Shown: positions 38,322 to 54,424 of the stretch, piece by piece
Position numbering within the stretch: position 1 is the first letter of the stretch
How the letters are laid out: every line of letters begins with the position of its first letter
Assembly (NCBI GenBank): GCA_029855935.1
Contig: JAGSHN010000025.1
Coordinates: 128,001-192,000, forward strand
DNA length: 64,000 nucleotides
DNA from: Candidatus Thorarchaeota archaeon
Lineage (GTDB): Archaea > Asgardarchaeota > Thorarchaeia > Thorarchaeales > Thorarchaeaceae
Reading direction: 5' to 3'
The notes under the pieces: generated by a model
What the model was told of the DNA's origin: nothing
Database searches by the model: none
Seen by the model: only the letters and a program-made list of their open reading frames with translations
Made by a program: the position numbers and the translations under genes

Positions 38322-40049
38322 CTAGAAGACGGCACGGACAGTGTTCAGTACAAGACCCACGAGATCCCTTGCCCGAGAGACCCTGATGACCGTCGCGCCC
38401 GCCTTGGTCAGAAGGGCCATCGACGGAGGATCAGAGCCCTCATCAAGCCATATGTGGAACACGAACAGGCTATGGCCGCGCTGTGTCAACCTCCTCACGC
38501 AGCGGACCATCTCTCCCCAGTTAGAGACTTCAGCGTCCGTGACCATCAGCACGACGGTCCTGTGCTCTGAGAGCAGACCCATCGTTTCGATTGCCTCGGC
38601 GGGAAGGACAGTGCCCTCCCCTTGGTACCTGAGCAGCACACGTTCGAGCAGGCTTCGTTCCCTCGTCCATCTCGTCTCAATCCAGTCTGAGGAGAAGTTG
38701 ATGACAGCAACCCTGGACCCGCGACGCAACACATAGTCGATTGCGGCAAAGGCGGATAGGAGAGCAAGATGAAATGCTCCCGAGAGCGAGGAGGTCCTGA
38801 CATTCCAGGTCATCGAGCCACTGGAGTCAAGCACAAGCAGAAGGTCTGGGAGGACCTTGGCCTCCGTGTCGGAATAGGACTCTACCCGGTGCCACCTCCG
38901 CGTTGATAGGTTCGGTATGAGGACGGGAAATGCCTGCAACGACTGGACCACATCAAGCTCCTCAATTGGATCACCAATCCGCCATACAATCGGAGCTAGC
39001 GGCAGGGCACCAGTGTGGCTACGCTCTCGTATCTCAAGCCTGACTAGCTCGCGAGCAAGGGCACGATACCAGAAACGGAGCCAGTCACGGCCTGAACCAG
39101 TGACCCCGCGCAGTACCATGGCCGCGCGAAAGTCCTCAAGATTGCCACCACGTTCTCTGATACTCGCAGCAGTGGCCTCAATCTCGGCCTCACTGGCGCG
39201 ACGCAACGGGTCTGTGCATTCTCTCACACGCTCGCCGTTGCGAATCTCGACGGGACTGCCCATCACCCTGTCTACATCTTGTGGGACACGAACAACATCC
39301 TCCTTGCCCTCACCACGCCACGGCAGGCGCACCATCTTGATGCTCTCGCCCGAGCCGCTGCCCGGCAGGCCCTCTTCCCCTGAAGTCCCCCCGAGTCTGG
39401 CAATGATCTGAGCAATCTTTTCGACTGCCAAGGGCCATCTGCGTTCACGATGACGATACTGGCGGAACACCTCCACAATCTCGGAGGCTGCAGCCAAGAT
39501 GTCTCTACCGAGCTTCACGGACTCCGGAACGGGGAGACCCCACTGGACTCGGTAGGTCGCCACGATGAGCGACCAGAGGACTGACCGCTGGGCGCCCTTC
39601 ATTGCGGAATAGTAGACCGAGTGTACGATCCGATTGTGGGTCAGACGAGGATACTGCTCAAGAAGTAGGGAGTCGACGACGAGGTCCGCGAACAGGTTAC
39701 ACGCGAACATAGCGGTCTCGTCATTCAGATGTCGTCGGGCACGGGAGAACATCATCGCACTGGTCACGTTGTCATAAGGACAGGTCAGGTAGTGCTGCAG
39801 CTCATGATGGCACACTGACCTGACAAAGGCGAAGGTCTCTTCGCTCGTCAGATAGTCGGGGACACTAGCGAGGTTGAGATGGACAGTCCACGTCTCGGTG
39901 TCGATGTAAAAGTGGCTGGGACGCTCGTCGTCGATGTCTATGACAGGGTCAGGGACAGGCGGCGAGTACAGGTCAGCCAGTGCCCGTGACCACGCACGCT
40001 CTGCGACCTCTATGATATGAGGCATGCCAGATCTGCTGTCGGACACCAT
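38322..40049 (-). CDS. vWA-domain protein with N-terminal HExxH zincin-like domain
   Basis: HHELQH; MIDAS LVLDSSGSM...GEGT...VTDAE; TGATG coupling to the upstream ATPase. Confidence 0.8.
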   Translation of the reverse strand: MVSDSRSGMPHIIEVAERAWSRALADLYSPPVPDPVIDIDDERPSHFYIDTETWTVHLNLASVPDYLTSEETFAFVRSVCHHELQHYLTCPYDNVTSAMMFSRARRHLNDETAMFACNLFADLVVDSLLLEQYPRLTHNRIVHSVYYSAMKGAQRSVLWSLIVATYRVQWGLPVPESVKLGRDILAAASEIVEVFRQYRHRERRWPLAVEKIAQIIARLGGTSGEEGLPGSGSGESIKMVRLPWRGEGKEDVVRVPQDVDRVMGSPVEIRNGERVRECTDPLRRASEAEIEATAASIRERGGNLEDFRAAMVLRGVTGSGRDWLRFWYRALARELVRLEIRERSHTGALPLAPIVWRIGDPIEELDVVQSLQAFPVLIPNLSTRRWHRVESYSDTEAKVLPDLLLVLDSSGSMTWNVRTSSLSGAFHLALLSAFAAIDYVLRRGSRVAVINFSSDWIETRWTRERSLLERVLLRYQGEGTVLPAEAIETMGLLSEHRTVVLMVTDAEVSNWGEMVRCVRRLTQRGHSLFVFHIWLDEGSDPPSMALLTKAGATVIRVSRARDLVGLVLNTVRAVF

Positions 40050-41803
40050 CAACGCCTCGCTACTTGTCCCAGTCCCTCCTCAATTATCCTCCTCAGTCTG
40101 ATTGCAGGAGTACCACCCGACACCTCAAGAAACACGGATGAGTCCGGTGAATCGCCAGTGACATAGATGACCAGGGTCAGTTGATCCATTCGAATGACAC
40201 GTCGCTTGGGCGGATGTAGGGTCTCCTTTAGGAAGGGCGTCATCTCGGGGAATGCCATACTGATGGTCGTCCACAGCTCACTCCAACGACGGAAGTCAAG
40301 GGTGTACTGCGACAGCGTAAGCCTGTGAAGGGCATCCGAGACCCGGCCAATCAGGGCGGCGCGGTTCGGTATTGTAGATGACCGTACAAGTTCCGCATAC
40401 ACCTTTGAGAGCCTCTTGACATCACCTGCAGCAATAGCAGCATCAATACGATGCACCATCTTCTCGTACGAGGCCTGTATCATCTTCTTTGCCACAGGGA
40501 GATAGTCGAGTCTGACCAGTAGATCGCTCTTGGCAATCTCCTGGAGTTTCTGGATGTCATCACGAGACCCATCACCCGTCTGTAGGCGGGCCATTATCTT
40601 ACGGGCTGGCTCCCGGGCCACGAATCGGGCAGTGGCCAGCTCCACAAGGTGGCACGTGAACTCGTATCTGTCACCATAGAAGGGCGATGCAGCCAGCCGG
40701 TCACGTACAAAGCGGGTGCGATGCCAGAAGACGAGCGGTGCAATCGACTTGACGATGTCCACACTCACTTCATCCGCACCGACAAGCCACGCTAGCGCCT
40801 TGCTGTAACGATTCAGGTCCTTTGCAGCCCTGACGCTGAGTGGGATGACCACTTTGTTGCATACCGTCTTGGCGATGTTGTAGTGACATCCATCACAGAG
40901 TCCCGAGTCAACTGTCAGCTCTCCAGACTGGCTCTTGTCGACACGCACACAGGCGTCGAACTCCCTCACCAATGACCGTATGTACTCGGAGGCCCCGTGC
41001 GATACCGCCATCTTATCCGCAAGATTCCAGATTGTGAGGAGGTCCTCCTCTGTCAGGATCCCCGGCACCTGCCAGAGCTCGTCGTAGCCGAAGAGCCTCT
41101 CATCACGGGTACCCAGGATGATCTCAAGGTCAGAGATTCGAGGCATTGTTATTGGTACGGCAAGGCCAAACCTGTCGAGAAAGGGTGGCGCCAGCTCAAA
41201 GGTCCCCGAGTCGGTTGGATTCATAGTGGCAAACAGGCAGTATTCCTCGCATCGGCGCACCTCATCATAGTACTTGAGTTCGCCCTCCGCAAGCATCGAC
41301 AGGAGTATGTTCTGTGCATGCGGAGTGAGACGATTGACCTCATCGACTATTTTCCAGAAGTCCGTTACAAACCGCCGCCAAACAACAACCTCGCGACCCT
41401 CCTTCATCAACGGGCCAGGACGAAGCGTCGCCACCATCTTCTCCTCGGTCAGCTGTGGGTGTCCACGGAGAATGGCATCCTCGATCTCGGCTATGCTCCG
41501 CCCCGTCATCATCCGGCCAAGGAGTTTCACAAGGGTGGTCTTGCCGCCGCCGTGGCCTCCAACAAGCAGCATCGCAGAGCGAGGGACCAGGGCATTAAGA
41601 ACACAGCTACCAGCAATGAGCGGCAGTCGAATCGACTTCGCACGACCCGCTCCCGCTGGCTGATACTTCACGGTCAGCTCCCCGGAGTGAACGAACAGGC
41701 CGTGGCTCTCGACCGTCGTGATGACCTCCATCACCTTGCGCCTCAGCTGTTCGTTCCTGCTGACCATTGCGATCACATCGCGTACTCTTATCGGAGTCTC
41801 CAT
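40049..41803 (-). CDS. MoxR-family AAA+ ATPase
   Basis: Walker A GGHGGGKT, Walker B IVDEVNR, ATMNP, FLDRFG, SVRA; Cys-rich insert. Confidence 0.85.
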   Translation of the reverse strand: METPIRVRDVIAMVSRNEQLRRKVMEVITTVESHGLFVHSGELTVKYQPAGAGRAKSIRLPLIAGSCVLNALVPRSAMLLVGGHGGGKTTLVKLLGRMMTGRSIAEIEDAILRGHPQLTEEKMVATLRPGPLMKEGREVVVWRRFVTDFWKIVDEVNRLTPHAQNILLSMLAEGELKYYDEVRRCEEYCLFATMNPTDSGTFELAPPFLDRFGLAVPITMPRISDLEIILGTRDERLFGYDELWQVPGILTEEDLLTIWNLADKMAVSHGASEYIRSLVREFDACVRVDKSQSGELTVDSGLCDGCHYNIAKTVCNKVVIPLSVRAAKDLNRYSKALAWLVGADEVSVDIVKSIAPLVFWHRTRFVRDRLAASPFYGDRYEFTCHLVELATARFVAREPARKIMARLQTGDGSRDDIQKLQEIAKSDLLVRLDYLPVAKKMIQASYEKMVHRIDAAIAAGDVKRLSKVYAELVRSSTIPNRAALIGRVSDALHRLTLSQYTLDFRRWSELWTTISMAFPEMTPFLKETLHPPKRRVIRMDQLTLVIYVTGDSPDSSVFLEVSGGTPAIRLRRIIEEGLGQVARR

Positions 41804-41875
41804 TCTGCCTTATGGTTGATGCGGTGAACGCGCCAAAGAGTGCCCCGCCCGAAGATGTAATAAACGTAGATTCCG

Positions 41876-42982
41876 ATGCCGGATGAAGGGCAGGTACCTA
41901 CAGTGGGCGAAGAGACCTCATTTGCTGACGCGATAAGGCTGGTGTCGCGGGAGGACATCAGTCCCAGTGGACTAGCACAGCGGTCAGTCGTCGAGATGGC
42001 AGAGTCTGTAGCCGAGGTCATTTCTGGCACCCTAGCCGCACGAGAGCAACTCGAGCAATTGGGCCTCTCCCCATGCACAAGGATACTATTCACGGGCCCC
42101 GTAGGAACGGACTTTGAGGACTTTGTCCTCTCTGTCTGCAGAGAGATGTCGCTGAATCTCGTAAGACTTCGAGTCGAGAGAACATTGCAATACGAGAGAG
42201 AGTTTGACACACTTGTTGCAGCAGCACTGGACACTGCACGCAGAGAGGCACCAGCCCTCCTGCACATCTCGTCACTGCATCTCTTGAGGGCCGTTGGAGA
42301 ACGTTCTGAGGTCCTTCTCCGAGAACAGCTGGCACAGTCGTCTATGGATAGCCAGTCTCTCGTCGTCATTGTGGGCACCACTCACAGGCCACAGGATCTC
42401 GACCCACAGACCCTGCTTGCCTTCGACAGAGTGTTGTGCGTCGGTCCCCCGGACGGAGAGGACCGGCAGAGTCTGCTCGTCCAGGCCCTTGCGTCACACG
42501 AGGACATTGATATTCCTCGTCTCGTAGACCTCACCGACGGGTGGTCCTACGCGTCACTCAGACATCTTGTTGCGGCCGTATTGGCAGAGGGCGGAGAGTC
42601 GGGCGAGGCGCCATCCATAGACCGCATCGAGAAGATGATAGAGGAGGGGCTGTTCGTCCCAGTTCTTGCCACAGGCAGCACAACCGAACTGGAAAAGAGG
42701 CTTGTCGGCGGGGGACGGGGGATCACACACGTCATTGAGGAGGTGTATCCTGATGACCTCCTCGACCAGCTCTACCTGATGGTCGTTACGGAGGACTATG
42801 GGACAGCACAGCAAGTCATCGAGGCCCTAAACGAGGGACTCCCGCTCTCTGATGAGCAGGTGAGGTTCCTCAACCGTTTTCCGTTTCTCCTCTCAGGAGA
42901 GCCCCGTGAGAGGCTCGCCCGTCTGATAAGGGCGAAGAAGAATAGAGACCGTCTGATGCGCGTGATGGGAAGGGAGGAATGA
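41876..42982 (+). CDS. Degenerate (probably inactive) CDC48/classic-clade AAA domain protein
   Basis: LGLSPCTRILFTGPVGTDFE, APALLHISSL, GTTHRPQDLDP, FDRVLCVGPPD, LTDGWSYASL. Confidence 0.75.
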   Translation: MPDEGQVPTVGEETSFADAIRLVSREDISPSGLAQRSVVEMAESVAEVISGTLAAREQLEQLGLSPCTRILFTGPVGTDFEDFVLSVCREMSLNLVRLRVERTLQYEREFDTLVAAALDTARREAPALLHISSLHLLRAVGERSEVLLREQLAQSSMDSQSLVVIVGTTHRPQDLDPQTLLAFDRVLCVGPPDGEDRQSLLVQALASHEDIDIPRLVDLTDGWSYASLRHLVAAVLAEGGESGEAPSIDRIEKMIEEGLFVPVLATGSTTELEKRLVGGGRGITHVIEEVYPDDLLDQLYLMVVTEDYGTAQQVIEALNEGLPLSDEQVRFLNRFPFLLSGEPRERLARLIRAKKNRDRLMRVMGREE

Positions 42983-42986
42983 CTGA

Positions 42987-45900
42987 TTGAGCGTGATCGT
43001 GAGGTCAATCAGACTCAGGAACTTCATGCCCTTCGTGGACGAGACAGTCCCGCTCGACCGCGGACTGACAGTCATTGTGGGGAGGAACGGCGCTGGCAAG
43101 AGTGCGATACTGCACGGACTGAAGTTCTGCCTGGGCTCAAACCAGCGAGAGAAACGATTTGGTAGCTGGGAGGGCTTCATCAGATGGGGCGCGGAAGTTG
43201 CAGAAGTTGAAGTGACGGTTGAGCATCAGGGTGAGACGATCGTCTTCGCGCGCAGGATTGGCAAGAAGGGAGTCCCACTGGCCTACATTAACGGCCGAAG
43301 GGTCCGTGCATCGGAGCTGCGGCGCGAGGTCGAGCGCCTCGGTTTCAAGGTTGACAACCCTCTTGTCTTCCTCCCACAGGAACGTGTCATTCAGCTGAGC
43401 AGTGCATCAGCAACCGACATCAGAGAGATGGTCGAGGATGGTACGGGACTCTACAGACTGAGGGACCGGATCCTCCTTCAGGAGACAGAACTGCGTCACG
43501 ACAGGATGAGATTGGAGGCCGCGCTTCTGGAGGCCCGCTCCATTCAGGGAGAATTGAAGCTTCTCGAGGGCGACCTCAAGCGCCTGAAGAAGAAGCAGGA
43601 TCTGCAGAGGACCAGAGAGAGCCTTGAGATCGAGTTGAAGTGGGCCGAACTCGAACTTGTGGAGAGGAACATCGAGAGAATCGACCAGGAGATTCAGGAA
43701 GAGGAGGTCAGCCTAAGACAGGCCAGTGCAAAAGTCGAGGAGATTGAGAACAAGATAGAGAGTGAGACCCAGACGGCCAAGGCGATCGAGTCGCAGACGC
43801 AGCTAATAAGGACCGAACTCGGCCGACTGAGAGAGCGGCTGGATTCGGAACGAGACCGGTTGAAAAACCTGAAGGAGAGCAACAAGCAGGCTGTGATAGA
43901 GCTCGGGGAGATTGACAAGCGCATCAAGAGAGACAGAATGGAGATGATGGCGCTACAGAGTGACATCGAGGCGAAGAAGAAGGAGATATGGAACACCACG
44001 GAGGAACTCGAGGAACTCAGGGAGAAGGAACAGGCGGCGAGAGAGGAACAGGAGAGACTTGAGGAGGCGCTAACACGCTACGTCGAGTGGAACACGCGTA
44101 GGATGGACATTCGGAGTAGACTGACAGCCGCACGAGGTCGGCTGAAGGACAGAGAGATAGATCTGAGAGCCTATCGCCAGAGGCTTCAGACAGACAGAGC
44201 CGATCTTGAGGAGATTGAGAGACAGTGGAGTGATCTGTGGGAGACGCTCGAGACCACAAGCGAAGAGGAACTACTATCTCAAAGGACCGAGACCAACAAT
44301 AGGATTGAAGAGCTGGCACAGAGGAGGGTGGCACATCTCAGCCGTATCGCTGAGCTGAAGAGGGAACTCGCGTTCACTGAAGAGTTGATAGCAGAGAGGT
44401 CAAAACGGATACCGAAGACTGTTCGTGCCCTCAGGTCTGAGGTAGAGAAGCACGGACTAGAGGCCATCGGTCCTCTCGTAGAGGTCGTGGGCGAGAACGA
44501 GGAGATGGCGGGCGCACTGGAGGCTGTACTGCGTGACCAGCTGGCCTTCGCATTCATAACGACAGACGCTGCGGACTTCCAGCTACTCTGTAGAATACGG
44601 GACGAACTTGAGGCGCCTGCACCAGTATTCCTAGTCGAAGATTCAACAGACGAGCGTGCCAAGGGGGCCCCCGAGATAGGAGGGAGGGAGGGGGTCCTTG
44701 GTGATCTGTGGCGGATGGCCGGGGTGACAGAGGAGCTTGCCCGCCTGCTGCGCAGGAGCATCGGATCGTTCTTGGTAGTCTCTGACGCAGGAGATGCAAT
44801 GCGCATCGCCCGCACAGCAAGGGTAGCCACCGTCACACCTCAAGGCCACGTCTTCATCGTTGGGAATGGTTTCGTCTTGAGCAGGCCCCAGAGTGGGCAG
44901 GCTGGACTCCTCTCGACAGCGCCTCTTCGAGCCAAGAGAGAGGTGCTGAGAAAGCAACTCATCGAAAGCGAACAACAGCTCGCGGAAACAGTCAGAGAGA
45001 TTGCGAATCTGGAGCGACTGCGCGACGAGCTGACCCAGCTTCTCGAGCGCTACGCGGAAAAGGACAGGATATGGGCCAGACGGAGCGAACTCGCAGAGGA
45101 TATCGAGCGGACCGAGGAGGCCATCCGCAAGATCGAGGAGGAGATTCTCCCTCTGAGGGAGGAGATTGAAGAACTCGTGTCCGAGCTGAGGAAGATGGAT
45201 AGCAAGCAGCCTCCTGAGAGGAGCCGGATTCAGGGCCAGCTCGTTGCCGTGCGTCAGCAGATCGCCAAGCTCGCCTCCGACATCTCCGCACGCAGGGGCC
45301 AGGTGGAGCGTGCAAGAGCTATCTTGAGGGCAGATCAGGACAAGGTCGGTACACTGGAAGAGAGCATTGCTGCACTGCAGCAGCATCGTGATGAGCTGAA
45401 GGAGATTCTCAGGCTGGCTGCCGAACAGTCCGACGAGATACTTGAGAACATAGAGGGCCTTGAGAGACGTATAGAGGAACTCTCTTCGAAGGAGGAGTCC
45501 CTGTCGCAGGAGCTGAGCGAACACCAGACAAAGCTGTACGCTCTGAACAGGGAGCTCGCGGAACACAACGTCCGTAGTCAGGACCTCATCAGAGAGGTGC
45601 GGCGCAAACGGCTACAACTGGGAAATCTTGAGACTCGCAGGAAGGAGATACAGAGTCAGGTCGCCTCAATCGCACGACCAGCCCGGGTGAGACCCCTTGC
45701 AGATGTCACCCGCGAGCTGGAGAGCGTGACCTCGCGGTTGGACGAGTACAGGGATGTGGATGATGACCTTCTTCGCGTCAGGTCCGAGCTTGCCCAGCGA
45801 CTGGCGGAGGTCGAGGCCAAGGCCGACCAGATACGTGACGAGATGTCAGAGGCTGAGAGCACGCTGGAGGACATCAAGGCGCAGTACTACAGTGAGATGG

Positions 45901-46424
45901 CAAAGGTGCTGGAGCGTCTCGGCAGAGACATCAACACTATTCTGAGGACTGTCGAGCTGGAAGGGGAGGTACGTCTGGAGATGGTCAAACAGGACGAGGA
46001 GTACGGGGTCGAGTTCCTGACGAGAATCAAGGATGGTACGTTCAAGGGCGTGAGACCGGGATCCGGCGGAGAGCGCACCCTGATAACAATTGCACTGATC
46101 ATCGCGCTACAGCAGCTGAATCCAGCCCCGATATACTTCCTCGATGAGGCGGACATGGCATTGGATGCTGTCTATGCGGACCGCGTCGGCCGACTGTTCA
46201 AGGCGGCTGCGGCCGACAAGCAGATTGTCATTCTGACACCGCTCCGGAGCGTCAAACTTCTCAAGCACGCAGACACTCTTCTGGGAGTTGCAACACCTGA
46301 CGGTCGCACCCCAGTCATCATAGAGGCCCCAGAGGAGGACAAGAACGAAGAACAGAACGAGAGGAAAGAGGGAGATGCCAAGAGGGAGGGAGGCGACGAT
46401 GACGATGGGAGGCAAGAGGAATGA
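42987..46424 (+). CDS. smc: SMC-family ATPase, SMC5/6-like
   Basis: LRNFM, Walker A GRNGAGKS, Q-loop VDNPLVFLPQERV, two long coiled coils around a hinge (IGPL...FAFITTD), GSGGER, YFLDEADMALD. Confidence 0.9.
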   Translation: MSVIVRSIRLRNFMPFVDETVPLDRGLTVIVGRNGAGKSAILHGLKFCLGSNQREKRFGSWEGFIRWGAEVAEVEVTVEHQGETIVFARRIGKKGVPLAYINGRRVRASELRREVERLGFKVDNPLVFLPQERVIQLSSASATDIREMVEDGTGLYRLRDRILLQETELRHDRMRLEAALLEARSIQGELKLLEGDLKRLKKKQDLQRTRESLEIELKWAELELVERNIERIDQEIQEEEVSLRQASAKVEEIENKIESETQTAKAIESQTQLIRTELGRLRERLDSERDRLKNLKESNKQAVIELGEIDKRIKRDRMEMMALQSDIEAKKKEIWNTTEELEELREKEQAAREEQERLEEALTRYVEWNTRRMDIRSRLTAARGRLKDREIDLRAYRQRLQTDRADLEEIERQWSDLWETLETTSEEELLSQRTETNNRIEELAQRRVAHLSRIAELKRELAFTEELIAERSKRIPKTVRALRSEVEKHGLEAIGPLVEVVGENEEMAGALEAVLRDQLAFAFITTDAADFQLLCRIRDELEAPAPVFLVEDSTDERAKGAPEIGGREGVLGDLWRMAGVTEELARLLRRSIGSFLVVSDAGDAMRIARTARVATVTPQGHVFIVGNGFVLSRPQSGQAGLLSTAPLRAKREVLRKQLIESEQQLAETVREIANLERLRDELTQLLERYAEKDRIWARRSELAEDIERTEEAIRKIEEEILPLREEIEELVSELRKMDSKQPPERSRIQGQLVAVRQQIAKLASDISARRGQVERARAILRADQDKVGTLEESIAALQQHRDELKEILRLAAEQSDEILENIEGLERRIEELSSKEESLSQELSEHQTKLYALNRELAEHNVRSQDLIREVRRKRLQLGNLETRRKEIQSQVASIARPARVRPLADVTRELESVTSRLDEYRDVDDDLLRVRSELAQRLAEVEAKADQIRDEMSEAESTLEDIKAQYYSEMAKVLERLGRDINTILRTVELEGEVRLEMVKQDEEYGVEFLTRIKDGTFKGVRPGSGGERTLITIALIIALQQLNPAPIYFLDEADMALDAVYADRVGRLFKAAAADKQIVILTPLRSVKLLKHADTLLGVATPDGRTPVIIEAPEEDKNEEQNERKEGDAKREGGDDDDGRQEE

Positions 46425-47137
46425 TCAGGGACGCACTCAGGAGTAGGGTGAGACGCCTTGCCCGGAGTGTCGAGTCCGGAGAGGTCGACCCCCTCGAAGT
46501 TGAACTCGCGAGATTGTACAGAGAGCTGCAGGAACTCTCGCAACAACTCCCAGTGAAGATGGAGATCGATGAGGCACTGAACGAACTCCTCAGTGCAAAG
46601 GTGGGTCGGGTGCAGGAACTGGCACGCGCCGTGGTGGACCCAGAACTGCTGGTAGACCGTGTGGCACACATGTCAGCCAGAGAGCTTGCCCGCCTCTTGA
46701 GGCTGAAGCGACCTCTGTTGGTCCCGGGGCTGTCGCATCAGCATATGCATCAGGCAGCGGAACGACTCAGACTTAGAGAACCGAGGAGGCAGTGGGACTT
46801 TGGGCGGGTCGAGCCAGTCGAACGGCCGACAAGGATGGACCTGAGGCTTGAGCCGGAGATCACGGAGGAGGAGGTTGAAGAGTTCCTCACCTCAGTCCCA
46901 GTGGGAGAGCCACTACGACTGAGTGACCTCCTGCGGAGCGAGGACGTGGAGGAGTTCCTGCGTAGGTTCCTGATGGTGGTTCTTCTTGTGGCCAGCGGCG
47001 ACCTTCAGTACGACGCGACCGCCAGAACCCTGACCCGAGTAGAGAGGAGTCCGGACAGTACTTCTTCGCGTGAGCAACAACAGGTCGCTGGCCAGCCAGC
47101 GGACCGAGGGAGGAGATGGAGGAGGCGGTCCCGATGA
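46421..47137 (+). CDS. Kleisin (ScpA/Nse4-like) subunit
   Basis: ATGA overlap with smc; N-terminal GEVDPLEVEL (cf. ScpA DPWDIDI); C-terminal winged helix RRFLMVVLLVASGDL. Confidence 0.7.
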   Translation: MIRDALRSRVRRLARSVESGEVDPLEVELARLYRELQELSQQLPVKMEIDEALNELLSAKVGRVQELARAVVDPELLVDRVAHMSARELARLLRLKRPLLVPGLSHQHMHQAAERLRLREPRRQWDFGRVEPVERPTRMDLRLEPEITEEEVEEFLTSVPVGEPLRLSDLLRSEDVEEFLRRFLMVVLLVASGDLQYDATARTLTRVERSPDSTSSREQQQVAGQPADRGRRWRRRSR

Positions 47138-47655
47138 ACAACGAGTTCTCTGTCTTGATGAGCGCACTGACGAGGCCCGGAAACCCCCCGGGGGCAAATA
47201 TCTCAGACCTGATCGAGGTGCTTGGCTATCCAGTCGACCCGGGACGGACAATCGTATTCAGGCTGCTCGCCGGGCTGGATCGCATCCTGCATCAGGTGGG
47301 CCTGAGGATAGCGTTCAATCCGGTCGAAGATGTCTTCTTCATCGATGTCACTGCAAGGGGCAAGGAGGACAGGACAAGACTCCCCGACCGCCTTGCGGCT
47401 ACACTGCTTGCCGTGATAGCACTGTCCTATCGGGAGCGCGACTGGGTCCAGGTGAGCCAAGTCAGACGCGTCCGCAGAAAGACGATGAGATCGGTCCGTG
47501 CGGACCTCCGTGAACTCCAGGTCCTCGGGTACGTAGAGTTCAGTGACGACGGGACCCGCGTCAGACCGGGTATTCGTGTGTCCTTCGAGGTCGACCACGA
47601 TGAGTTCTTCCGTGCGCTGAGCAAGGGAAAGTACGGCGCGAGCAGTGACGAATAG
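47134..47655 (+). CDS. KITE (tandem winged-helix; ScpB/Nse1/Nse3-like) subunit
   Basis: ATGA overlap with the kleisin gene; two WH-like units (LDRILHQVGLRI; LRELQVLGYVE...RPGIR). Confidence 0.65.
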   Translation: MNNEFSVLMSALTRPGNPPGANISDLIEVLGYPVDPGRTIVFRLLAGLDRILHQVGLRIAFNPVEDVFFIDVTARGKEDRTRLPDRLAATLLAVIALSYRERDWVQVSQVRRVRRKTMRSVRADLRELQVLGYVEFSDDGTRVRPGIRVSFEVDHDEFFRALSKGKYGASSDE

Positions 47656-47733
47656 GTCCCCAGGACGACAAGGAGAACAACTGTTTCAATATGTTTATCT
47701 TGTGTGGGAGGGCGGGATGCACGGTCCTGAATC

Positions 47734-48093
47734 ATGTCGCACAGGAAAGCATTGAGATTCGCAAAGACTGTCTGTCCCATCTGCGGTAGCAAAGAGGTTG
47801 CCCGTGATGACCTGAAGGGCGACCTTCTGTGCACGAACTGTGGCCACATAATCACAAGACATGAGACCCGGGCCGTTGGAAAGTTCGAGATCGCGCAGCA
47901 TCTGAAACGCGAGGGCAAGCTCACGTTCGAGCAGCTCAAAGAGATCACAAAGTCATCGGACGACCGACTGTTTGGCGTGCTGCAGAGCATGCTCAGCATG
48001 GGGCTCATTGACGAACTGGGTGGCAAGTATCACCTGACCAAGCGTGGTCAGCGCTGGTACCGCCAGAGACTGGGACAAGAATGGGGATATTGA
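47734..48093 (+). CDS. TFIIB-type Zn-ribbon fused to a winged-helix domain
   Basis: CPICGSKEVARDDLKGDLLCTNCGHII; C-terminal MLSMGLIDELGGKYHLTKRG. Confidence 0.75.
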   Translation: MSHRKALRFAKTVCPICGSKEVARDDLKGDLLCTNCGHIITRHETRAVGKFEIAQHLKREGKLTFEQLKEITKSSDDRLFGVLQSMLSMGLIDELGGKYHLTKRGQRWYRQRLGQEWGY

Positions 48094-52201: not shown

Positions 52202-52380
52202 GTCATACTCCTCCAGTCACGGTTCATGCTCTCGACGCGCCCGACGGGACCTCTGCGTCATCGTTCTCTCGCTGATATGGCTCAATGTATCACATCCAAG
52301 CAGTACATCCGTGTAACACTCAAAAGGAATTCGACAGAGGATACTTGTGGTCAATAGCTGCGGCACTGGAGGCCCGCCTG

Positions 52381-53592
52381 TTGGACGCAAAGAGCTTGTA
52401 CATCATAAAGAGAGAGAGTGGCGTGTGCCTTTATCACCGCGACTTCAAGGAGCCTATGTTCGATCCACACCTCATATCCTCATTCATCGCTGCGATGACC
52501 TCTTTCTTCACGGAGTCAAACTACTCCGTGATGTCGACAGCACGTGCGTTCGAAGGGGCCGACTACAAGATCGTTCTAGAGTTTGGAGAGTGGACCGTCG
52601 GAGCGCTGGTTGTGAACAAGGACACTGAGGCGCTCCGCGAGAAACTCAGGGCAATCATCCAGGAGTTTGAGAAGCAGTTCTCCATTCTGCGCTACATTGA
52701 CCTTGACCTTGCAGTCTACACCAGGTTTGAGAAGACTGTGATGAGCGAGTTCATCTTCAACGAGATCACGCCAGAGACAATCATCCGCAAGAAGTTGAAC
52801 TGGGACCTTATCACGGACAATCCCGACGTGAGGTCTTTCCTGCAGCTCCTGCCAGAGAAATGCTCCGTGAGGGACGCGGCTGAGTTTCTTGAGATGCCCG
52901 TGGAGGTTGCAATGAAGCTGACGGCTGAGGCCCTGTGGGAGAGAGCTATCACAGTCTCAGAGCCAGTCCGACCCGACGACATATTCTCAGCGACAGTGCG
53001 CGGCCTCATAGGCGGGCAGACGGATGACGTTTCTCCGGACACCGCCCGTGCCATCAGGGAGCTCGATGGTGAGACACCTCTGGCCATCGCGGCAGAGAGG
53101 GTGAAGACTTCTGATCTTCAGAGGTTCCTCGAGGAGGTCGCAATGCTCGCACGCCGGAGAGCCATTGAGAGAGTCTCGCCATCGCAGACAGCCATGATAC
53201 TGTGGACCTCTCTCATTCAGCAGCTGCTCAACATCGGTGCCAAGATTCTTGGTACTGAGAGAACAGCCCGCGTGTTCACCGAGGCGCGTCGCGAACTGCT
53301 GGGCGTCTATCCGTGGCTGGCCTTTGTAGACCTTGAGAGAGAAGTCGATGTCGACATTCGAAGTGGCCTGATTGCCTCTGCTGTGAAGGGAGAGATCTCA
53401 CCAGTGATAGTCAATGACGGGTTCAGGGCATTGACGCAGTTCTTCACAAAGCGGCTGAGTAGGTATGTGAATATGAAACGGGTCAATGAGGCTATTCTCA
53501 CCGTGAAGGACACAATGGAGAAGGAATTTCCGACACGGTGCTACGACATCGAGTGGGAACTCCTCAAGGTGAGCGAGGAGTCCGTCATCTAA
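52381..53592 (+). CDS. Longin-domain protein with tandem winged-helix-like and helical C-terminal domains
   Basis: LYIIKRESGVCLYHRDF...DPHLISSFIAAMTSF (longin); TTG start after GGAGG; the ORF is open back to 52285. Confidence 0.7.
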   Translation: MDAKSLYIIKRESGVCLYHRDFKEPMFDPHLISSFIAAMTSFFTESNYSVMSTARAFEGADYKIVLEFGEWTVGALVVNKDTEALREKLRAIIQEFEKQFSILRYIDLDLAVYTRFEKTVMSEFIFNEITPETIIRKKLNWDLITDNPDVRSFLQLLPEKCSVRDAAEFLEMPVEVAMKLTAEALWERAITVSEPVRPDDIFSATVRGLIGGQTDDVSPDTARAIRELDGETPLAIAAERVKTSDLQRFLEEVAMLARRRAIERVSPSQTAMILWTSLIQQLLNIGAKILGTERTARVFTEARRELLGVYPWLAFVDLEREVDVDIRSGLIASAVKGEISPVIVNDGFRALTQFFTKRLSRYVNMKRVNEAILTVKDTMEKEFPTRCYDIEWELLKVSEESVI

Positions 53593-53740
53593 ATCGTAAG
53601 TGTCATATCCCACAATGCGCTTGAGACGTCTGTCTCTTCACACCTAGGGGGCCCAGAGCCTGACTGAGAGAAGAACTCCACAAGTCATCGCCTACGTCGC
53701 AATTGCCATCATCGTGCCAGTTGTGGGCGGGCTCCTCCAA

Positions 53741-54424
53741 ATGACCGGGCTCACCAGCGTGCTCCTCCTCTTGATAATCGTTCTTGGCCCGGCCATCGCC
53801 ACCATAACAGGGGCTCTCGGAATAAGGAGATATGCACGAGGAGGGTTCGTCGGACACGATCAGTTCACCGCAATGAATCTACTCGTTGCACTGGGCGTCG
53901 GTGTACTGGTACTCCCTGAGATCCTTGCCTCAATCATCACTATCGTGCCCTCAGCGACAAGTGACGTGATGGTTGTCATGTTGCTTCAGTTCCCGGGCGT
54001 TATCCTGTGGACACTTGGAACGATGAGCTACTACAGTGCTGCCATTAGCGCCCTGAAACGTCGTAGCGTCCGTGGGGACATAGCGACGATGATTGTTGTG
54101 GCAGCGATCGTGACTGTGACTCCTACTTGGCTATCTGTCGACTCTCCTGCGTCAAGAGATGTCATTCGAGCACTGGCCTACTTTCCCACAACAACAGCAC
54201 TCGGTGCCACAGTCATTGCACTGGCTGCTCTTGCATGGTCATTCAGAGGGGGGAGGATTGGAATCTTCATCATTGTCCTCTTGGCCGGCATGATAGTCTA
54301 TCTGGTCCAGAGCCTGATGTGGGGGGCGCTCGGCATACTCCCAACAGACATCATCACACGTCTTCTCTCAGTCGAGGCATACGTTCTGCTGGGGCTAACA
54401 CAGAGCATCGAGGAGACTCTCTGA
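53741..54424 (+). CDS. Hypothetical membrane protein (about 7 TM)
   Basis: Seven hydrophobic segments; co-oriented with the longin gene. Confidence 0.6.
   Translation: MTGLTSVLLLLIIVLGPAIATITGALGIRRYARGGFVGHDQFTAMNLLVALGVGVLVLPEILASIITIVPSATSDVMVVMLLQFPGVILWTLGTMSYYSAAISALKRRSVRGDIATMIVVAAIVTVTPTWLSVDSPASRDVIRALAYFPTTTALGATVIALAALAWSFRGGRIGIFIIVLLAGMIVYLVQSLMWGALGILPTDIITRLLSVEAYVLLGLTQSIEETL

Follow-up and report, generated by a model that had tools for sequence, protein, structure and literature searches.

What does an AAA-type protein that has lost its catalytic residues do at the head of an operon for a structural maintenance of chromosomes (SMC) complex, and does the MoxR-von Willebrand A (vWA) gene pair beside it belong to the same machinery? 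These questions are raised by a locus at positions 38322-48093 of a 64,000-nucleotide (nt) stretch, here called the window, of a Candidatus Thorarchaeota metagenome-assembled genome (MAG; assembly GCA_029855935.1, contig JAGSHN010000025.1, positions 128,001 to 192,000), whose probable source metagenome is a hydrothermal vent. Eukaryotic SMC5/6 is believed to descend from the second archaeal SMC complex, and we know of nothing established about how the latter is loaded, regulated or released. We found that the AAA-derived protein, here called X, is a constant fourth gene of the second SMC operon, and that MoxR-vWA pairs are recurrently linked to both SMC paralogues; both observations appear to be undescribed. 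X and the linked MoxR-vWA pair are concrete, testable candidates, and the cultured Promethearchaeum syntrophicum MK-D1 possesses them.

The operon runs on the plus strand. X (41876-42982, 368 amino acids, aa) is followed at a spacing of 4 nt by an SMC gene (42987-46424, 1145 aa, with SMC_N at residues 5-1103 and SMC_hinge at 494-608), a kleisin candidate (46421-47137, 238 aa) and a KITE subunit (47134-47655, 173 aa, tandem winged helix), with ATGA overlaps at both the SMC/kleisin and the kleisin/KITE junctions. On the minus strand to its left lie the MoxR-class AAA+ gene (40049-41803, 584 aa) and the vWA gene (38322-40052, 576 aa), where the stop of the former overlaps the start of the latter, an arrangement of translational coupling. 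An initial annotation of the window had listed these genes and a seventh downstream, and its strands, overlaps and coordinates were all confirmed. On TIGR02168/9 the window SMC reaches 227 bits, far under the cut-off. The canonical SMC of the same genome scores 938 bits on TIGR02169 and lies on another contig (C14; G000:C14:82277-85837), adjoined by ScpA and a ScpB-sized gene. Because this canonical operon is found elsewhere in the same Thorarchaeota MAG, the window operon is the second SMC-kleisin-KITE operon of TACK/Asgard archaea, which has been described as SMC5/6-related (van Hooff et al., bioRxiv 10.1101/2024.01.07.573240; Yoshinaga and Inagaki 2021, PMC8665677). The locus had been proposed as a new SMC5/6-like system, and for the core trio this novelty does not stand. 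The main texts of 10.1101/2024.01.07.573240 and PMC8665677 mention neither an AAA-derived first gene nor MoxR-vWA neighbours, and a wider literature search found no description of them, so that this part of the system does appear to be new.

We then examined X itself, which matches the AAA family PF00004 at 1.2e-7. Its first ~250 residues resemble the Cdc48/p97 D2 module in a profile search against the PDB (2e-38), and its AlphaFold2 model (pLDDT 81) has p97 D2 as the top Foldseek match (1.7e-13). Sequence and model together indicate that X descends from a CDC48-D2-type AAA ATPase. The protein has the AAA fold and lid of PF00004 but departs from the Walker A pattern GxxGxGK[ST] and the Walker B pattern hhhhDE, the window sequences being GPVGTDFE and LLHISS. 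A degenerate AAA protein had been predicted here; the Walker A Lys and the Walker B Asp-Glu are missing, and the same holds for 13/13 Thorarchaeales orthologues that we aligned (Walker A GPPGTDFE, Walker B LYIxxLE). The loss is therefore old and maintained. ATPase activity is thus predicted to be lost, except in Freyarchaeum, whose X alone keeps a P-loop (GTGKT, with Walker B D-N) and an intact AAA part. X is probably not an unfoldase because it has a single AAA module, neither the Walker A Lys nor the Walker B Asp-Glu, and no conserved pore loop. Since the residues for nucleotide binding and hydrolysis are gone, it most likely acts independently of ATP as a structural or regulatory subunit, for example a loader, an adaptor or a modulator of the ATPase cycle.

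The most conserved part of X is its C-terminal helical domain of ~85 residues (residues ~285-368, nt 42728-42979, plus strand). The AAA part is heavily shortened in Jordarchaeales and Baldrarchaeia, the Jordarchaeales protein consisting of the lid and the C-terminal domain, and the Pfam AAA domain was undetected in Lokiarchaeota X proteins and in nine of ten long family members tested. Together with the lost catalytic residues, this truncation is what would be expected if X were a decaying AAA remnant without present function, kept by its translational coupling to SMC. We consider this highly improbable, as an intact X frame occurs in >160 genomes from five classes, Thorarchaeota X orthologues share 28 invariant residues, the C-terminal domain is recognizable in all five classes and the structural model is confident. 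Moreover, in the Thorarchaeota genus g4 X is missing jointly with KITE and vWA in 4/5 genomes, and not on its own. This joint loss shows that the locus is dispensable and was lost as a block.

To follow X across lineages, its C-terminal domain was used alone as query, and 301 Asgard genomes were searched. In five other Asgard genomes the search returned one gene each, directly upstream of an SMC-kleisin-KITE string. Beyond Thorarchaeota, X lies directly 5' of SMC in Jordarchaeales, Baldrarchaeia, Lokiarchaeota and Freyarchaeum deiterrae; the Lokiarchaeota with X include Harpocratesius repetitus and P. syntrophicum MK-D1 (DSAG12_00496). X is therefore the first gene of the second SMC operon in five Asgard classes (Thor-, Jord-, Baldr-, Loki- and Freyarchaeia), which bears out the linkage of the AAA gene to smc in other genomes. 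It was detected in 59/70 Thorarchaeota and 83/92 Lokiarchaeota genomes sampled. The families with both an X domain and strong KITE matches are f1, f2, f7, f8, f9, f19, f23, f28 and f31; family f16 has two weak KITE matches only (E about 1e-4) and no X domain, and the domain was found in no other Asgard family among the 301 genomes. Word-index homologue searches gave mostly Thorarchaeota sequences or too few matches, and the operon comparison covers the Asgard archaea. When 1.84 billion proteins were searched exhaustively with a profile, the X domain turned out to form a family of only 109 clusters, nearly always at the C-terminus, and in 5/5 metagenomic members sampled the next gene downstream is an SMC gene, with two small genes after it. 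The small size of this family argues against an occurrence of X beyond Asgard archaea. An ESM-Atlas search with the C-terminal domain alone gave no usable match. As a separate observation, ~4 kb upstream of X-SMC-kleisin-KITE in H. repetitus, on the same strand, a gene (L118:15-3479) encodes a protein of 1154 aa with HEAT repeats that matches Cnd1, a condensin non-SMC subunit, at 2e-11.

As for the partners of X in the operon, all SMC motifs are intact (Walker A, Q-loop, signature SGGE, Walker B DE and hinge), and 18 orthologues agree without exception at G32, K38, Q131, S1026, G1028, D1053 and E1054. A pairwise PDB search with this SMC gave similar E-values for Smc, SMC3, SMC5 and SMC6 and so cannot separate an SMC5/6 affinity from a condensin/Smc one. 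The SMC linked to X in Freyarchaeum-type genomes is short (823-835 aa; L119:9070-11577 and L148:2484-4955), implying much shorter coiled-coil arms. The AlphaFold2 model of the 173-aa protein (pLDDT 85) has two winged-helix units, and KITE proteins (ScpB, MAGE-A3, MukE, Nse1/Nse3 and JetB) make up nearly all of the full-length matches in its Foldseek top 25. From its modelled structure this protein is a KITE subunit, with no KITE branch singled out: ScpB (7e-5) ranks slightly above MAGE-A3 (9e-4) and Nse1/3 (5e-3), with low TM-scores throughout. Two orthologues have weak DUF4194 (JetB/MksE) matches, and the KITE alignment compared with PDB profiles gave no relevant match, just a weak winged-helix regulator (E 0.016).

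For the 238-aa protein we accept a kleisin identity on its position, its size and two leads. Its place and size are kept in all lineages, while the last ~25 residues form a basic tail that is not conserved. Neither the protein nor its orthologues have a Pfam match, and their alignment has no relevant PDB sequence match. The nearest named ESM-Atlas clusters are Nse4_C (0.93 and 0.85), followed by ScpA (0.80). Hhalign against the ScpA and the ScpB-sized gene of the same genome gave weak matches only, among them a collinear one to the C-terminal part of ScpA (E 0.005).

We compared the rates at which these genes diverge, using identities to the window among Thorarchaeaceae orthologues (loci L045-L064, leaving out G037, a genome of another family). 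X, SMC and kleisin are only 30-40%, 33-38% and 32-39% identical, respectively, and vWA and KITE about 48%. MoxR is 65-76% identical, and the flanking genes mostly 71-81%, falling to 44-61% in four loci with a rearranged flank. The canonical SMC of the same genomes retains 59-65% identity, so that the divergence of X, SMC and kleisin is about twofold faster, even within a genus. These three evolve together, which fits co-evolving partners, and either a conflict with mobile elements or a relaxation of constraint could underlie their fast rate.

The products of the other arm are predicted to be an active AAA+ ring of the MoxR class and the vWA protein that partners it. MoxR (AAA_5 at 7.5e-14, plus AAA_lid_2) has an intact Walker A (GGHGGGKT) and Walker B DE, both invariant among orthologues, and it carries a Cys4(His) insert that is likewise invariant; among solved structures it is most closely related to 2r44, a MoxR-family protein, and to Midasin. 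The vWA protein, single-copy in Thorarchaeota, Jordarchaeales, Baldrarchaeia and Lokiarchaeota, combines an N-terminal domain of ~380 aa containing an HExxH motif with a C-terminal von Willebrand A domain (Pfam VWA_2 at residues 404-507, and VWA) carrying the metal ion-dependent adhesion site (MIDAS) DSSGS...T...D. Across 11 orthologues from Thorarchaeota, Jordarchaeales and Baldrarchaeia there is no variation at H83, E84 and H87 or at the MIDAS residues D409, S411, S413, T481 and D506.

The linkage of this pair to SMC genes takes different forms in different lineages. In Jordarchaeales (3/3 genomes) and Baldrarchaeia (1/1), MoxR-vWA-X-SMC(-kleisin)-KITE forms one co-directional overlapping string, and these six genes are the sole ones common to the Jordarchaeales and Baldrarchaeia loci. 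In Thorarchaeota the pair is divergent from the X operon in every informative locus. In Lokiarchaeota it lies far from the X operon and in several genera of two families, f9 and f23 (g40, g58, g52; g47; and g66, at 5 kb), stands tail to tail with the canonical SMC (L123:3177-11181, L125:4848-12543, L134, L135, L138, L139 and L144; SMC 828-832 bits on TIGR02169), MoxR, vWA and canonical SMC being the only genes that the f9 and f23 loci share. MoxR-vWA is thus also linked to smc elsewhere, in the same operon in Jordarchaeales and Baldrarchaeia and beside the canonical SMC in some Lokiarchaeota, and the refuting condition named in the initial annotation, AAA and MoxR-vWA genes unlinked to smc in other genomes, did not come true. 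A vWA orthologue is further present in 8/9 families with X and strong KITE matches. Within the Thorarchaeaceae the arrangement was found in 20/20 genomes fetched, and each of the 50 Thorarchaeota loci shows it to the extent that its contig allows; it is not a chance juxtaposition.

The explanation that we favour, and hold to be somewhat probable, is a four-subunit SMC complex of X, SMC, kleisin and KITE, in which X is a pseudo-AAA accessory subunit, together with a MoxR-vWA remodeller that acts on SMC complexes. The gene order suggests SMC itself as the partner of X, whose lid and C-terminal domain would make the contact with the complex. When X was offered as partner to the SMC head halves and kleisin, the complex prediction reached 0.00, the mark being 0.32, and it counts neither way. 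The MIDAS site of vWA might grip an acidic residue on the client, on which the MoxR ring would then pull, by analogy with CbbQO, NorQD, RavA-ViaA and Rea1/Midasin. We infer that the client is an SMC complex, which the pair would remodel when it is loaded, unloaded or recycled. Proteolysis by the HExxH domain could come on top, with kleisin cleavage as a possibility. These individual roles, namely X as adaptor or loader, unloading by MoxR-vWA and kleisin cleavage, were already part of the initial annotation and are purely inferential, as are physical binding, the client and the direction of the effect, whereas gene content, motif states, folds and conserved linkage are observed. Its interpretation is partly supported as a whole: the gene linkage stands, the novelty of the trio does not, and a shared promoter is doubtful. 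If the favoured explanation is true, SMC complexes would join the short list of clients of MoxR/MIDAS remodellers, and the conserved pseudo-AAA protein would be an ATPase fold reused as a structural subunit. A stronger version, in which MoxR-vWA, possibly through HExxH, is a dedicated ATP-driven remodeller that opens, unloads or cleaves the rings of both paralogues, with X as its docking adaptor on the SMC5/6-related complex, seems unlikely to us; it would provide a prokaryotic counterpart of the eukaryotic release or extraction by WAPL, separase and Cdc48/p97.

Several observations weigh against a remodeller role of the pair, and some of them also speak for its main rival, which is possible, if on the unlikely side: that X-SMC-kleisin-KITE is the sole functional unit and MoxR-vWA an unrelated housekeeping chaperone, for example for metal-cofactor insertion (CobST, NorQD, CoxDE), held beside it by inherited synteny that goes back to a few ancient accidents. 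The pair evolves slowly and in a housekeeping-like manner, MoxR being 45-76% identical across classes, out of step with X, SMC and kleisin. In most Lokiarchaeota genera sampled it adjoins neither SMC (g24, g43, g51, g31, g73, g77, g54 and family f31 have it apart from any SMC), and where it faces the canonical SMC the genes are convergent and hence not an operon; in f9 the flank upstream of MoxR is syntenic whatever the SMC. No vWA orthologue turned up in Freyarchaeia, although they possess the X operon. In about ten Thorarchaeota genomes of one subclade a TauE/SafE transporter gene is inserted between MoxR and X, and in the Thorarchaeaceae unrelated metabolic flank genes are equally syntenic, so that conservation at the family level alone proves nothing. 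The associations may go back to as few as two ancestral events and would then be few independent observations. As for the vWA N-terminal domain, it has no Pfam, NCBIfam or PDB match and none to a recognized peptidase family; its ESM-Atlas look-alikes, a cluster with DUF2201_N in 26% of members (score 0.87) and, among the nearest, CobT-like clusters, are leads only, the latter in the direction of a chaperone. A pair held by synteny alone would nevertheless hardly explain the single overlapping co-directional string of Jordarchaeales and Baldrarchaeia with no further common gene, the adjacency to canonical SMC in f9 and f23 that outlasts the change of all other neighbours, or the company of vWA and the X/KITE operon in nearly all families with strong KITE matches. 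We retain the four-subunit complex with a linked remodeller as the preferred explanation.

An SMC-based defence against plasmids or viruses, Wadjet- or SMC5/6-like, in which X and the MoxR-vWA-zincin proteins would be sensor or effector modules that replace JetD, appears distinctly unlikely. Restriction of extrachromosomal DNA is a known activity of both SMC5/6 and Wadjet (PMC10586767), and the twofold faster divergence of X, SMC and kleisin within a genus is as in an arms race, although relaxed constraint explains it equally well. The weak DUF4194 matches of the KITE orthologues point the same way. However, within whole classes nearly all genomes have the operon, in one copy and by vertical descent, at a fixed chromosomal site amid housekeeping genes, and no nuclease or other effector is found at the locus. 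PADLOC matched just the generic SMC head and AAA folds; vWA, MoxR, kleisin, KITE and the seventh gene product had no PADLOC match, and there was none for JetA, JetB or JetD. The absence of a JetD/Toprim nuclease had been predicted, and indeed Pfam and PADLOC revealed no Toprim/JetD/MksG-like gene at the locus or its flanks. The suggested anti-plasmid or antiviral role thus gained no positive support beyond fast evolution.

The initial annotation had also proposed that both arms are co-regulated and had pointed to a 72-bp AT-richer gap between them, where a shared bidirectional promoter might lie. The divergent gap between MoxR and X (41804-41875, no strand) is indeed 72 bp long, and its GC content of 0.53 differs only slightly from the local ~0.57. 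In other Thorarchaeota genomes it spans ~0 to 590 bp, and the TauE insertion implies that a shared promoter is not required, which makes such a promoter doubtful.

The locus can be compared with several known systems. Like the archaeal SMC5/6-related operon, it has a second SMC with its own kleisin and KITE while a canonical SMC-ScpAB operon lies elsewhere; unlike that operon as presented in the published main texts, it has X as a constant fourth gene and MoxR-vWA neighbours. As in eukaryotic Smc5/6 with Nse5/Nse6, an SMC-kleisin-KITE core is accompanied by an extra non-catalytic subunit that could regulate loading or the ATPase cycle. Nse5/6 are alpha-solenoids (van Hooff et al., bioRxiv 10.1101/2024.01.07.573240), whereas X is an AAA fold with a small helical domain. 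The archaeal locus also differs from eukaryotic Smc5/6 in having no Nse2-like SUMO ligase, and its SMC is presumably a homodimer. Wadjet (JetABCD) and MksBEFG likewise combine SMC, kleisin and KITE with a fourth gene, and the KITE signals are weakly JetB/MksE-like; in contrast to them, the archaeal locus has no JetD/MksG Toprim nuclease, carries its extra gene 5' and not 3' of SMC, and is chromosomal, single-copy and vertically inherited. Cdc48/p97 D2 is the best sequence and structure match of the AAA part of X, which lacks its Walker A Lys, Walker B DE and conserved pore loop.

MoxR-vWA remodelling pairs include CbbQ-CbbO, NorQ-NorD, RavA-ViaA and CobS-CobT, and Rea1/Midasin is related in kind. 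Like these, the Asgard pair couples an AAA_5-type ATPase translationally to a vWA protein with an intact MIDAS; it differs from them in the Cys4 insert of the ATPase and the uncharacterized HExxH domain of the vWA protein. To our knowledge, no MoxR-vWA pair acts on SMC complexes.

The seventh gene, encoding a TFIIB-type Zn-ribbon and winged-helix protein (47734-48093, plus strand, 119 aa; Zn_Ribbon_TF at 8.5e-8), had been counted as part of the system. It follows KITE in Thorarchaeales only and was not found in Jordarchaeales, Baldrarchaeia, Lokiarchaeota or Freyarchaeia loci, and we set it aside as a Thorarchaeota-only neighbour. Its identity to the window is 63-86%, and 49% in the other Thorarchaeales family, a slow evolution that sets it apart from the SMC module. 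The flanks of the locus encode ordinary metabolism (NAD(P)HX repair, oxidoreductases, H+-pyrophosphatase and ZPR1), with no nuclease or defence island among the flanking genes. Further downstream in the window, beyond tRNA-Ala and ZPR1, two ORFs (52285-53592, 435 aa, and 53714-54424, 236 aa) have no Pfam match.

Rearrangements were seen in individual Thorarchaeota genomes. Examples of the TauE/SafE insert are L092:8924-9910, L096:6053-7024, L103:3106-4089 and L085:3094-4041, and one genome has a gene with a caspase-domain match between MoxR and X instead of TauE (L111:5750-7636). In G037, from the other Thorarchaeales family, a CGGC-domain gene lies between X and MoxR (L063:9183-9620), and the vWA gene is shifted by ~4 kb through an opposite-strand gene of 1030 aa (L063:11656-14748). 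Changes at L048:11150-13172, L057:1556-3984 and L058:11726-12651 affect the end of the operon: some genomes carry inserts of 2.0-2.4 kb between kleisin and KITE, and in G016 KITE and the Zn-ribbon gene are inverted together. The SMC frame of G035 (L051:5588-7981) is open for 797 aa only, maybe through a frameshift or a split gene.

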